This document shows, piece after piece, positions 33,001 through 39,000 of a stretch of DNA of 64,000 bases. Position numbers: made by a program. Source of the DNA: a virus (lineage: Duplodnaviria; Heunggongvirae; Uroviricota; Caudoviricetes). Position 1 is the first letter of the stretch; every line of letters begins with the position of its first letter. Location: IMG/VR virus record IMGVR_UViG_2721755646_000005; one strand, written 5' to 3'.

Positions 33001-36000
33001 ACGTGGGGGGGCTCGCTGTGGCACTGCAACAGTATGACCGAAGATAAACCCGGAGAAGCTCATTCATCAGCCTGGACCCTGGCTGCAAAACGTGGGCGGG
33101 ATGCAGGAGGCTGAAAATGACGGCATTACTGACACTGGAAGAGATCAAGGCACATCTGCGTGTCGACCATGACGCGGATGATGACATGCTGATGGACAAG
33201 GTTCGTCAGGCTACCGCCGTGCTGCTGGCCTACATTCAGGGCAGCCGGGATAAGGTGATTCGTGAGGACGGTGAACTGATCCCGGGCGAGGCATTAACCC
33301 GGATGAAGGGGGCTGCCATGCGACTGACCGGGATGCTGTACCGGAATCCGGATCTTGCGGAGCGGGAAGAACTGATTCAGGGGGAGCTGCCGTTTTCTGT
33401 TTCCGTGCTGATTTACGATTTGCGTTGTCCGACGGTGTTATGAGGAGGGGGAATGGCAATATCTGCAGGTCGTCTGACACAGATGATAAGTGTTCTGAAC
33501 CCGGTGTTAACCCGTAATGCTGCCGGAGAAATGACGGAAGAATGGGTGTCATGCGGGAAAATTCATGCGGATATCCGTGGCAGGAGCAGCCGGGAGCGGA
33601 TGCAGTCCGGTGCGGAAATGGCGCAGGCGGAAATCCGCATCTGGGTGCGCGGTCAGTCCGGTCGGGAAATCACGGCAGCGTCACGACTTCATGTGCTGAG
33701 TGGTCCCTGGCGTGACCGGATCCTGAACGTTGTCGGGCTGCCCGTGCCGGATGCGACCGGCGGACGTCTGGAAATTCTCTGTCGGCTGGGAGGGGAAAAA
33801 TGATCGAAACCCTGCTGGATTTTTCGGGGCTGGAGGACATCAGCCGCGATTTGCAGCTTCTGAGTGGTGCAGAAAATAACCGGGTGCTGCGTGAGGCAAC
33901 CCGTGCGGGTGCGAATGTGCTGAAAGAAGAAGTGGTGTCACGGGCACCGGTACGCAGGGGAAAACTGCGCCGCAATGTGGTGGTCCTTTCCCGGCGCTCC
34001 CGCGATGGCGGGATGGAATCCGGTGTGCATATCCGGGGTGTTAATCCGGACACCGGTAACAGCGATAACACCATGAAGGCGGATAACCCGCGCAACGCTT
34101 TCTACTGGCGGTTTGTGGAAATGGGGACCGTGAATATGCCACCGCACCCGTTTGTGCGCCCGGCATTTGATGTGCGCAGTGAACAGGCGGCACAGGTGGC
34201 GATTGCGCGGATGAACCGGGCCATTGATGAGGGTACTGAGACGATGACGGAGGCGGATTTGTATCCTCATCTGGCGCATCTTGCCGGCGGGCAGGTGTAC
34301 CCGTATGTGGTCCCCCTGCTGGATGGCAGGCCGTCGGTGGCGCTTCCGTGGGTGGTTTTCAGCCTGATTTCATCGGTGTCAGCGGACGTGATGGGCGGGC
34401 AGGCGGAGTCCTCAGTGTCGGTGCAGATAGACGTTTATGCCGGGACTGTGACGCAGGCGCGTCAGATACGTCAGGACGCCCGTGAAGCCATAATGCTGCT
34501 GGCCCCGGGATCCGTCAGTGAAATGCAGGACTATATTCCGGAAAACCGCTGTTACCGTGCAACCCTGGAGTTTCAGGTCACGGTGTGACTTTTTCTTTTT
34601 TCTACAAAACCCATACCCCGCCGCGTGCGGGTTTTTTATTATCAGGAGGCAGAATGTCTGCTTTGTATGAACGCTCACAGCTGACGCAGGTGATGATTTC
34701 ATCTGCCCCGGCGACTGCTGAAACTATGGATAAGGCGGAATATCTGCGCCTGGACTGCACCATCAAGGAAGTGCAGTTCACCGCCGGGCAGAAACAGGAT
34801 ATTGATGTGACCACGCTCTGCTCCACAGAGCAGGAGAACATCAACGGTCTGGGGGCGTCGTCTGAGATTTCCATGTCGGCAATTTTTATCTGAATCAGGC
34901 CCAGAACGCCTGCGTGATGCCTATGACAATGACGCGTTGTATGCGTTAAGGTGCTGTTTCCGTCCGGTAAGGGCTTTAAGTTCCTGGCGGAAGTGCGCCA
35001 GCACACCTGGTCATCCGGTACCAACGGCGTGGTGCTGCAACGTTCTCACTGCGTCTGAAAGGCAAACCGGTGTCCTTTGTGGTACCGCTGGCGTTTGTGA
35101 AAATCTGGATAAGACACTTACCGTGAATACCGGTGCGCTGCTGACAATGTCAGTCAGTGCCAACGGGGGAACGCCGCCGTATAAATACGCCTGGAAGAAG
35201 GATGGTCAGCCGGTTGACGGGCAGACGACAGACACCTTCAGTAAGCCAGGTGCGCAGTCCGCTGATGCGGGGAAATATACCTGTGTGGTGACCGATTCGG
35301 CAGAGGAAAGCACAGAGTGTGACGTCTGTTTGAATGACCGTGACAGTGGAGCGCAGCCGCCGGATAAGGGGATGGGTCATCATGAAAAGGATCTGAAATG
35401 GCAGTATGACCGAAGATAAACCCGGAGAAGCTCATTCATCAGCCTGGACCCTGGCTGCAAAACGTGGGCGGGATGCAGGAGGCTGAAATGACGGCATTAC
35501 TGACACTGGAAGAGATCAAGGCAATCTGCGTGTCGACCATGACGCGGATGATGACATGCTGATGGACAAGGTTCGTCAGGCTACCGCCGTGCTGCTGGCC
35601 TACATTCAGGGCAGCCGGGATAAGGTGATTCGTGAGGACGGTGAACTGATCCCGGGCGAGGCATTAACCCGGATGAAGGGGGCTGCCATGCGACTGACCG
35701 GGATGCTGTACCGGAATCCGGATCTTGCGGAGCGGGAAGAACTGATTCAGGGGGAGCTGCCGTTTTCTGTTTCCGTGCTGATTTACGATTTGCGTTGTCC
35801 GACGGTGTTATGAGGAGGGGGAATGGCAATATCTGCAGGTCGTCTGACACAGATGATAAGTGTTCTGAACCCGGTGTTAACCCGTAATGCTGCCGGAGAA
35901 ATGACGGAAGAATGGGTGTCATGCGGGAAAATTCATGCGGATATCCGTGGCAGGAGCAGCCGGGAGCGGATGCAGTCCGGTGCGGAAATGGCGCAGGCGG

Positions 36001-39000
36001 AAATCCGCATCTGGGTGCGCGGTCAGTCCGGTCGGGAAATCACGGCAGCGTCACGACTTCATGTGCTGAGTGGTCCCTGGCGTGACCGGATCCTGAACGT
36101 TGTCGGGCTGCCCGTGCCGGATGCGACCGGCGGACGTCTGGAAATTCTCTGTCGGCTGGGAGGGGAAAAATGATCGAAACCCTGCTGGATTTTTCGGGGC
36201 TGGAGGACATCAGCCGCGATTTGCAGCTTCTGAGTGGTGCAGAAAATAACCGGGTGCTGCGTGAGGCAACCCGTGCGGGTGCGAATGTGCTGAAAGAAGA
36301 AGTGGTGTCACGGGCACCGGTACGCAGGGGAAAACTGCGCCGCAATGTGGTGGTCCTTTCCCGGCGCTCCCGCGATGGCGGGATGGAATCCGGTGTGCAT
36401 ATCCGGGGTGTTAATCCGGACACCGGTAACAGCGATAACACCATGAAGGCGGATAACCCGCGCAACGCTTTCTACTGGCGGTTTGTGGAAATGGGGACCG
36501 TGAATATGCCACCGCACCCGTTTGTGCGCCCGGCATTTGATGTGCGCAGTGAACAGGCGGCACAGGTGGCGATTGCGCGGATGAACCGGGCCATTGATGA
36601 GGTACTGAGACGATGACGGAGGCGGATTTGTATCCTCATCTGGCGCATCTTGCCGGCGGGCAGGTGTACCCGTATGTGGTCCCCCTGCTGGATGGCAGGC
36701 CGTCGGTGGCGCTTCCGTGGGTGGTTTTCAGCCTGATTTCATCGGTGTCAGCGGACGTGATGGGCGGGCAGGCGGAGTCCTCAGTGTCGGTGCAGATAGA
36801 CGTTTATGCCGGGACTGTGACGCAGGCGCGTCAGATACGTCAGGACGCCCGTGAAGCCATAATGCTGCTGGCCCCGGGATCCGTCAGTGAAATGCAGGAC
36901 TATATTCCGGAAAACCGCTGTTACCGTGCAACCCTGGAGTTTCAGGTCACGGTGTGACTTTTTCTTTTTTCTACAAAACCCATACCCCGCCGCGTGCGGG
37001 TTTTTTATTATCAGGAGGCAGAATGTCTGCTTTGTATGAACGCTCACAGCTGACGCAGGTGATGATTTCATCTGCCCCGGCGACTGCTGAAACTATGGAT
37101 AAGGCGGAATATCTGCGCCTGGACTGCACCATCAAGGAAGTGCAGTTCACCGCCGGGCAGAAACAGGATATTGATGTGACCACGCTCTGCTCCACAGAGC
37201 AGGAGAACATCAACGGTCTGGGGGCGTCGTCTGAGATTTCCATGTCGGGCAATTTTTATCTGAATCAGGCCCAGAACGCCCTGCGTGATGCCTATGACAA
37301 TGACGCGTTGTATGCGTTTAAGGTGCTGTTTCCGTCCGGTAAGGGCTTTAAGTTCCTGGCGGAAGTGCGCCAGCACACCTGGTCATCCGGTACCAACGGC
37401 GTGGTGGCTGCAACGTTCTCACTGCGTCTGAAAGGCAAACCGGTGTCCTTTGTGGTACCGCTGGCGTTTGTGAAAAATCTGGATAAGACACTTACCGTGA
37501 ATACCGGTGCGCTGCTGACAATGTCAGTCAGTGCCAACGGGGGAACGCCGCCGTATAAATACGCCTGGAAGAAGGATGGTCAGCCGGTTGACGGGCAGAC
37601 GACAGACACCTTCAGTAAGCCAGGTGCGCAGTCCGCTGATGCGGGGAAATATACCTGTGTGGTGACCGATTCGGCAGAGAAAGCACAGAGTGTGACGTCT
37701 GTTGAATGCACCGTGACAGTGAGCGCAGCCGCCGGATAAGGGGATGGGTCATCATGAAAAAGGATCTGAAAACGCTGGCGCTGGCCAGACTGTCAGGGTT
37801 TCGTCATAAAACGGTGAAGGTGCCGGAATGGGGTAATGTCAGCGTGGTGCTGCGGGAGCCTTCGGCAGAGGCCTGGTATCTGTGGCAGGAAGTGCTCAAT
37901 GGTGATGGAGAGGATGACGATACCCTTTCGGTGGTGGCGAAAACCCGCCGTAACCTGGAAGCGGATGTGACGCTGTTCTGCGATGTCCTGTGTGATACGG
38001 ACCTGCAGCGGGTGTTCACTCCGGACGACCGTGAGCAGGTGCTGGCCGTCTATGGTCCGGTACATGCCCGGTTGCTGCGTCAGGCACTGGAACTGATCGC
38101 TGATGCAGAGTCGGCCAGAAAAAAGTAGCCCGCCCGGAAATTCGCTTTCTGATGCGACTTGCGCTCCGTCTGGGGCGCACCTTATCCGAACTGCGCCACA
38201 GCCTGAGTGCGAGCGAGGCGATGATGTGGATGGAGTTCGACAGGATATCCCCGCTGGGTGATGAGCGCGGGGATATCCGTAATGCACAGATCGTGAAAGC
38301 GGTTTTCGGGGCACAGGGGATGAATGTTGCACTGAAGGACGCCATGCTCTGCTGGGGCGAGGATGAGGATAAGCCGGAGGTGGATCCGTTTGCGGCGCTG
38401 GAAGACGCGCTGAGCCTTGCAGCACAGTCATGAATGATGAGAACCGCTGAGGCGGTTTTTTTACGCCCGGAGAAAGGTGAATGGCGACGTTACGTGAACT
38501 GATTATCAAAATTTCGGCAAATTCACAGTCATTCCAGTCGGAGATCCAGCGGGCGTCCCGTATGGGCAGTGAATATTACCGGACCCTGCAGAATGGCGGA
38601 CGTCAGGCTGCTGCGGCAGCCAGGGAGCAGCGCCGGGCTCTGGCTGAGCTGCACAGCCAGTTGACGGAAATCCGCGCTTCGGCTGTCGGAATGACCGGTG
38701 CGTTTGCCGGTGCCTTTGCCACCGGACACCTGATTTCGCTGGCGGATGAATGGAGCTCCGTGAATGCCCGTCTGAAACAGGCGTCGCAGTCATCGGATGA
38801 ATTTGCGTCATCACAGAAAGTGCTGATGGATATCAGCCAGCGGACAGGCACCGCATTTTCGGATAATGCGGCCCTGTTTGCCCGTTCGGCTGCCTCGATG
38901 CGTGAATATGGTTACAGTGCTGATGATGTGCTGAAGGTGACGGAGGCCATTTCGACAGGGCTGAAAATCTCCGGTGCCAGTACGGCAGAGGCGGGCTCGG

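Follow-up and report, generated by a model that had tools for sequence, protein, structure and literature searches.

A 2.37-kb tandem repeat of the head-tail module in the Stx2c prophage of Escherichia coli O157 strain 644-PT8 is probably an unmerged assembly overlap

Near-identical head-to-tail repeats of a few kb are known from long-read bacterial assemblies in which contig ends were left unmerged (the Circlator problem, PMC4699355), and the locus described here presents a repeat of this kind. Genuine tandem duplications in phages and prophages likewise take the form found here, a direct repeat of a structural-gene block in a lambdoid prophage. In E. coli O157:H7, large prophage-mediated duplications and inversions have been described (PMC8743559), among them an inverted repeat of 200 kb in strain 644 (PMC5320650), strain and prophage family being those of the present case. 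The substrate of these rearrangements consists of long exact repeats between prophages, with the Stx2c prophage as a recombination hotspot (PMC8743559); the events range in size from 140 kb to 1.2 Mb, with homologous prophage sequence at their boundaries; most are inverted, and optical maps have confirmed them. For the genes themselves the closest described system is the module of Stx2c phage 2851, of the Pankowvirus type, and our locus has the same module order: portal, gp6-like connector, head completion, HK97-gp10-like, gp17, major tail protein with Ig domain, and chaperone.

The window that we analyzed, a stretch of 64,000 nt filed as a virus sequence (IMG/VR record IMGVR_UViG_2721755646_000005), is identical to bases 2091304..2155303 of NZ_CP015831.1 (E. 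coli O157 strain 644-PT8) and contains a Stx2c-type prophage at the sbcB/dacD site. An earlier reading of the bare sequence (hereafter the sequence-only reading) had pointed out a near-identical direct tandem repeat, and this repeat is indeed present in the window sequence, about 2.37 kb long and far beyond chance. Copy 1 covers 33030..35398 (2369 nt, with 11 indel errors in its 3' part) and copy 2 covers 35402..37771 (2370 nt, with 2 indel errors within the first 123 nt, the rest being identical to single-copy references); the true unit length is 2372 nt, and these and all other stranded features given below lie on the + strand. The two copies are separated by a 3-nt filler, TGG (35399..35401), a novel junction that fits neither the sequence before the unit nor the sequence after it. 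Copy 2 had first been placed at 35399..37768 and said to start with the last 75 bp of the portal gene; instead, it follows the filler, and the unit opens 85 nt before the portal stop (33030..33114) and ends 17-18 nt into the tail assembly chaperone gene. The breakpoints share no microhomology and the filler is untemplated. The junction k-mer is GGATCTGAAA(TGG)CAGTATGACC, and the sequence across the junction reads GGATCTGAAATGGCAGTATGACC. CP015831, an accession linked to BioProject PRJNA321984, is the GenBank/RefSeq record that contains the repeat, with the junction at record position 2,126,702.

Gene order and domains are as expected for a lambdoid Stx2c head-tail joining and tail module. Matches above the curated Pfam cut-offs were obtained among the module genes for PF04860, PF05135, PF05521, PF04883, PF11367 (which we take to be the former DUF3168) and PF06222, and for the major tail subunit also with Ig-domain families; tail-tube families on the major tail subunit are sub-threshold (PF16460, 23.8 bits against a cut-off of 28.4; PF06199, 23.0 against 23.8). 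The portal gene (30373..33114) is intact and encodes 913 aa with a Phage_portal domain. Within copy 1, the gp6-like head-tail connector (33117..33443) and the head closure or head completion protein (33453..33803) are intact. They are followed by an ORF of 262 aa (33800..34588) in which the HK97-gp10-like and gp17 tail-completion genes are fused; the fusion arises from an extra G at 34231, with the gp17 start at 34244 still intact, and is a miscall artefact. The major tail gene of copy 1 is broken: PGAP annotates the span 34654..35335 only, while the gene extends to about 35366 and contains nine indels in total. The sequence-only reading was right that this gene is broken, but its count of at least 10 indels there is too high, the others lying at 35385 and 34231.

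Copy 2 opens with an orphan 3' fragment of the portal gene (35403..35486), followed by a connector (35488..35813) that is frameshifted by a missing C at 35524. Downstream, the head closure protein (35823..36173), the HK97-gp10-like protein (36170..36616, 148 aa), the tail completion protein gp17 (PF11367; 36613..36957, 114 aa) and the major tail subunit with its C-terminal Ig-like domain (37023..37739) are all intact, and the tail assembly chaperone gene (37754..38128) comes next. The sequence-only reading had described the same pattern, with the connector intact in copy 1 and disrupted by a 1-nt deletion in copy 2, the major tail gene intact in copy 2, the gp10-like and DUF3168-like genes separate only in copy 2, and neither copy alone complete, and on each of these points we agree. 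An ORF at 34937..35419 crosses the junction, and its sequence hinges on the indel errors.

Between copy 1 and copy 2 there are 13 single-base indels, of which 9 are deletions and 4 are insertions, and not one substitution. In 11 of the 13 a run length is altered or an adjacent base is doubled, and the earlier description of the differences as single-base indels, many of them in homopolymers, thus proved accurate. All 13 fall in an error-dense inner zone of 1294 nt (34231..35524), in which their density rises towards the junction, and all 13 are private to the window when compared with three single-copy references. Eleven belong to copy 1 (34231..35385) and two to copy 2 (35486 and 35524). Those of copy 1 comprise the nine in the major tail gene, the one at 35385 in the first chaperone codons and the one at 34231 in the gp10-like gene. 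To the left of the junction they lie at distances of 13, 50, 61, 69, 93, 298, 364, 452, 489, 520 and 1167 nt, to the right at 84 and 122 nt. The indels are confined to the inner 27% of the repeat, and the probability of finding all 13 within 1294 of 4742 nt is P = 4.7e-8 if a uniform distribution over both copies is assumed. The flanks and the outer portion of each copy are identical to the closest references. An indel-only spectrum, mostly in runs, is that of the sequencing platform, and the "complementary frameshifts" of the sequence-only reading are almost certainly sequencing errors.

Comparison with relatives points to a single copy throughout. The sister strain 180-PT54 has an orthologous Stx2c prophage that runs collinear with the entire window and contains the unit once; outside 34231..35524, i.e. 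over 62.7 kb, only one difference attributable to the window was found (a run of G8 versus G9). The two strains are separated by 3 core SNPs and an estimated one year of divergence (PMC5320650). The Stx1a prophage on the 644-PT8 chromosome has one intact copy of the unit. The relatives listed all show the single-copy span, of 3731 or 3893 nt, and the single-copy state that the sequence-only reading had anticipated for related Stx2c prophages was thus found in 180-PT54 and in all the relatives listed. Of 5426 complete E. coli genomes, only the source record contains the whole junction (201 nt spanning it), and none of 75 matching phage records does.

The repeat lies where an assembly failure is to be expected, within a longer repeat that exceeds most reads. 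The same chromosome carries a Stx1a prophage at yehV, and a block of the window, 22517..51362, recurs in its late region; this block measures 26,477 nt without the extra copy, and the match is essentially exact. The repeated unit is found in mid-block, with 10.5 kb of the 26,477-nt repeat on one side of it and 13.6 kb on the other. The library had been sheared to a 20-kb target and assembled by PBcR/Celera 8.1/Quiver, with 644-PT8 remaining in two contigs and assembly difficulties being reported; a single 5.8-Mb contig was built from the MinION assembly and an optical map, and the assembled sequence was edited in Geneious, so that the record is a manually rebuilt PacBio/MinION assembly (PMC5320650). 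In 180-PT54, which went through the same pipeline, we found a private +C frameshift in the matching zone at the centre of the repeat.

We consider it very probable that the duplication arose in CP015831 during assembly or finishing, as an artefact in which two overlapping sequence ends were left unmerged; the actual Stx2c prophage then in all likelihood has one connector-to-major-tail module. Of the alternative that the sequence-only reading had raised, an error-prone or collapsed assembly, the assembly error is retained, but not the collapse: an unmerged overlap leads to expansion instead. Inside the 26.5-kb block, unambiguous placement would be limited to long reads with an anchor in the unique sequence on either side. 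Assembly paths from the left would advance about 12.9 kb into the block and those from the right about 16.0 kb, leaving an overlap of only 2.37 kb that consists of read tips with thin coverage and poor polishing. These ends would have been placed one after the other rather than merged, whether by the assembler or when the sequence was rebuilt by hand (PMC5320650). The outcome would be a direct tandem repeat, the inner 1.3 kb of which keeps homopolymer indels of the raw-read type. The repeat, the place and kind of its 13 differences, the single copy in relatives, the long intragenomic repeat and the manual history of the assembly are shown directly; we infer from them that two low-coverage ends meet at the junction and that reads would not support it. 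Quiver, if run after the join, would be expected to polish both copies; on this explanation, polishing must have preceded the join, or ambiguous reads in the 26.5-kb repeat must have been excluded. For the TGG filler we have no specific explanation beyond read-tip noise.

Two other origins within the assembly were considered and rejected. The junction is not one of the four joins that result from the twice-inserted 200-kb contig, because both of its sides are collinear with 180-PT54 at the same locus; mirrored strain-specific genes (supplementary table) place copies of the mirrored sequence near 2.84 and 3.31 Mb, far from 2,126,702. An Illumina-polished MinION assembly with residual repeat errors is rejected as the main cause because such errors would spread over both copies and the whole 26.5-kb repeat, whereas only 1.3 kb at the junction is affected.

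It is unlikely, in our estimation, that 644-PT8 carries a real 2.37-kb tandem duplication, which would have to be very recent and either fixed or restricted to a minority of cells. It would have arisen by illegitimate recombination once 644-PT8 and 180-PT54 had separated, and the indels would still be sequencing errors overlaid on it at thin coverage. The head-to-tail junction is indeed clean and lies within one prophage, and O157 populations are structurally heterogeneous, with the Stx2c prophage as a rearrangement hotspot and variants in 1-2% of cells (PMC8743559); a read from such a low-frequency variant, once in the layout, would yield the same error pattern. A fixed duplication, however, would turn the junction into a unique, deeply covered marker that should be the best-polished spot, and it is observed to be the worst. 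Breakpoints that lack microhomology and enclose an untemplated filler also speak against a real event, as does its absence from the sister strain and from all other of the 5426 genomes. Moreover, the differences between 644-PT8 and 180-PT54 listed in the source paper (PMC5320650) do not include the duplication, and the 2.37-kb repeat was not found in text searches of that paper, its supplement and later papers citing the accession.

A chimeric template molecule, or a chimeric corrected read, might have served as layout backbone, for instance if PBcR had mis-joined reads from paralogous prophages. We regard this as highly improbable. It would have the same observable result (a junction that is unique and poorly supported, with errors that are all indels), and a 26.5-kb paralogous repeat offers ample chance of mis-correction, but the taper of errors over about 1.2 kb on one side suits tapering coverage better than a single breakpoint. 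This is a sub-variant of the artefact reading, indistinguishable from it on present data, and not a biological alternative.

The weakest reading, to which we give hardly any credence, is the one proposed from the sequence alone, an older genuine duplication now decaying, with copies that complement each other by different frameshift losses: although no copy has all genes intact and the pair together gives one intact version of each, 13 indels stand against 0 substitutions, when substitutions exceed indels about tenfold in E. coli mutation-accumulation studies, the changes are limited to the 1.3 kb around the junction, the junction is in no other record, and the surrounding 62.7 kb differs at no more than one site from a strain with about one year of divergence and a single copy, so that the duplication would have to be less than about one year old. 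The comparisons with the references and with the sister strain effectively refute it.

The duplication is almost certainly not a biological feature. It has no bearing on phage biology, and its relevance is one of data hygiene. As a spurious element in a RefSeq "complete genome" it amounts to a 2.37-kb insertion with five pseudogenes or gene fragments and one fused ORF. Later comparisons of Stx prophages have drawn on this record, in which the prophage length is inflated; it might be misread as evidence of gene duplication, of pseudogenisation or of a defective prophage. Three signs in combination can serve as a diagnostic of an unmerged overlap, namely copies that differ only by homopolymer indels, clustering of these at the junction, and a location midway along a long intragenomic repeat. 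Should the duplication be real after all, a site already known as a rearrangement hotspot would harbour a small, unstable structural variant, and the packaged genome would be 2.4 kb longer.

Set against the described systems, the repeat differs from the large O157:H7 events in that it is only 2.37 kb long, direct and tandem, has ends without homology and lies below optical-map resolution. It differs from genuine tandem duplications by having no independent occurrence, no substitution divergence, differences localised at the junction and a sister strain with a single copy. Its genes are ordinary members of the phage 2851 type, with 99.5% DNA identity to 2851; the distinction is that phage 2851 and every other record carry one copy of the module. 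From the unmerged contig ends of long-read assemblies (PMC4699355) it is set apart by a join that is internal to the record, not at the coordinate origin, and that is undocumented in the source paper (PMC5320650); with them it shares the end-clustered small indels, the setting in a large repeat and a record that was edited by hand.

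The window contains a direct tandem repeat of the head-tail joining and major tail module, as the sequence-only reading had claimed, with copy 1 at 33030..35398 and copy 2 at 35402..37771; the second copy had been placed 3 bases too early, and the TGG between the copies (35399..35401) matches neither flank. The unit starts 85 nt upstream of the portal stop codon, ends 18 nt inside the tail-assembly-chaperone gene and holds the genes for a gp6-like connector, a head completion protein, an HK97-gp10-like protein, gp17 tail-completion (PF11367, which we take to be the former DUF3168) and an Ig-domain major tail subunit. 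The earlier gene-by-gene account is correct, small corrections aside; the portal fragment measures about 84–85 nt and not 75, and nine indels, instead of at least 10, fall within the copy 1 major tail gene. Between the two copies there are 13 single-base indels and not one substitution.

The window is identical to positions 2091304..2155303 of NZ_CP015831.1 (E. coli O157 strain 644-PT8) and carries a Stx2c prophage whose integration adjoins dacD/sbmC, a site named sbcB in PMC7200060. The stx2c operon (17368..18944; A subunit 17704..18663, B subunit 18675..18944) comes directly after three phage tRNA genes (Ile, Arg, Arg) and the gene for the Q antiterminator, as is usual in Stx phages. Two inverted copies of IS1203 (IS3 family; 1732..2945 on the minus strand, splitting a DUF2528 gene, and 5359..6572 on the plus strand) lie in the early region and are also found in the sister strain 180-PT54. 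ORF6N/P22AR antirepressor-type genes form three adjoining fragments at 13234..14505, annotated as partial pseudogenes; because they are identical in 180-PT54, they are real remnants, not errors. For the cbtA toxin gene (51216..51589), which belongs to a CP4-44-like island adjoining the prophage, the annotation gives a frameshift in both strains.

When each copy is compared with strains 180-PT54 and 350 and with phage 2851, all of which have the module once, all 13 indels are private to the window. Copy 1 carries 11 of them (34231..35385) and copy 2 the other two (35486 and 35524); there is no departure from the closest references in the left 1.2 kb of copy 1, in the right 2.25 kb of copy 2 or in either flank. 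Indel density rises toward the junction between the copies, with distances of 1167, 520, 489, 452, 364, 298, 93, 69, 61, 50 and 13 nt on the left side and of 84 and 122 nt on the right (P = 4.7e-8 for all 13 differences falling within 1294 of 4742 nt, assuming a uniform fall over the two copies). Nine are deletions and four insertions, and 11 of the 13 change the length of a run or double an adjacent base.

Related Stx2c prophages, proposed earlier as a check, bear on copy number: the 180-PT54 orthologue runs collinear with the window from end to end and holds the module once. That strain is 3 core SNPs away from 644-PT8, with their divergence put at about one year (PMC5320650). With 34231..35524 set aside, two positions differ in about 59 kb, namely a G8 run in the window against G9 (at 25656) and an extra C private to 180-PT54. 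The G8 run (25649..25656, intergenic, with the genes for an HNH endonuclease and the terminase small subunit on either side) is G9 also in the Stx1a prophage of the same genome, and is probably one more homopolymer miscall. The extra C (position 35059 of L007, the 180-PT54 prophage locus; NZ_CP015832.1 about 2,127,175; window 35054/37427) frameshifts the Stx2c major tail subunit gene of that strain (PGAP: frameshifted), and is likely a polishing error too. The span is single-copy in all matches listed from the phage collection and complete E. coli genomes, the source record excepted. A 201-nt junction probe matched in whole only one of 5426 complete E. coli genomes, the source record itself, and found no whole match in phage records. 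The portal gene (30373..33114) has a repeat of its own, a 162-nt (54-aa) unit repeated 4.3 times in tandem at 31960..32654, which lies in the C-terminal half of the 913-aa protein (the Phage_portal domain covers residues 54–382 only) and varies in copy number among relatives (gene length 2742 nt in 644-PT8 and 180-PT54, 3066 nt in strain 350).

The 644-PT8 chromosome also has a Stx1a prophage at yehV/btsS, with one intact copy of the module. Window 22517..51362 is essentially identical to its late region over 26,477 nt (17285..43761 of its locus L009; NZ_CP015831.1 about 1,885,284..1,911,760), the sole differences being the 13 indels and the G-run. The two late regions, from lysis genes to tail fibre, form a direct repeat about 228 kb apart, and long prophage-prophage repeats of this kind have been invoked as substrate for large rearrangements (PMC8743559). 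For an assembler such a repeat is a trap, and the doubled unit sits in its middle, 10.5 kb from the left and 13.6 kb from the right edge. The extra C of 180-PT54 falls in the same central zone, and this error in a same-pipeline assembly speaks for low sequence quality at the repeat centre in these assemblies. The PacBio library had a 20-kb shear target with size selection of fragments of at least 10 kb, and assembly used no corrected reads beyond the longest 20x (PMC5320650). Difficulties were reported for 644-PT8: two PacBio contigs were obtained, and a single 5.8-Mb contig was built by inserting a 200-kb contig twice, guided by a MinION assembly and an optical map, with editing in Geneious and manual removal of duplicated ends (PMC5320650). 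The joins of the 200-kb contig lie elsewhere, which rules out the junction as one of them. The 2.37-kb repeat is absent from the list of differences between 644-PT8 and 180-PT54 in that paper.

We consider it very probable that two sequence ends with thin coverage and a 2.37-kb overlap were set end to end unmerged, and that the join was not re-polished. Reads wholly within the exact repeat are unplaceable; only reads anchored outside it count, and these would meet with their tips in the middle. A path from the left that extends 12.9 kb into the block and one from the right that extends 16.0 kb would share just 2.37 kb, the doubled stretch, and these ends would then have been joined one after the other. 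It seems improbable to us that a real duplication arose very recently, whether fixed or confined to a subpopulation, and is overlaid by sequencing noise: once fixed, its junction would offer a unique anchor and should be well polished, but it is the worst-polished spot; moreover, the breakpoints show no microhomology and a 3-nt filler, and the junction occurs in no other record. The complementary decay of two copies, as first read, is not borne out, and evolutionary decay of a genuine duplication can be all but dismissed because the spectrum is indel-only, the changes are localised and a sister strain about one year diverged has a single copy.

Taken together, the tandem duplication is very probably not a real biological feature, and the "complementary frameshifts" are best read as sequencing miscalls; the value of the case lies in a flag on the public record and a diagnostic pattern for similar cases, nothing more. 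The true Stx2c prophage would then have every gene of the module once and intact, like that of 180-PT54 and the paralogous Stx1a prophage.
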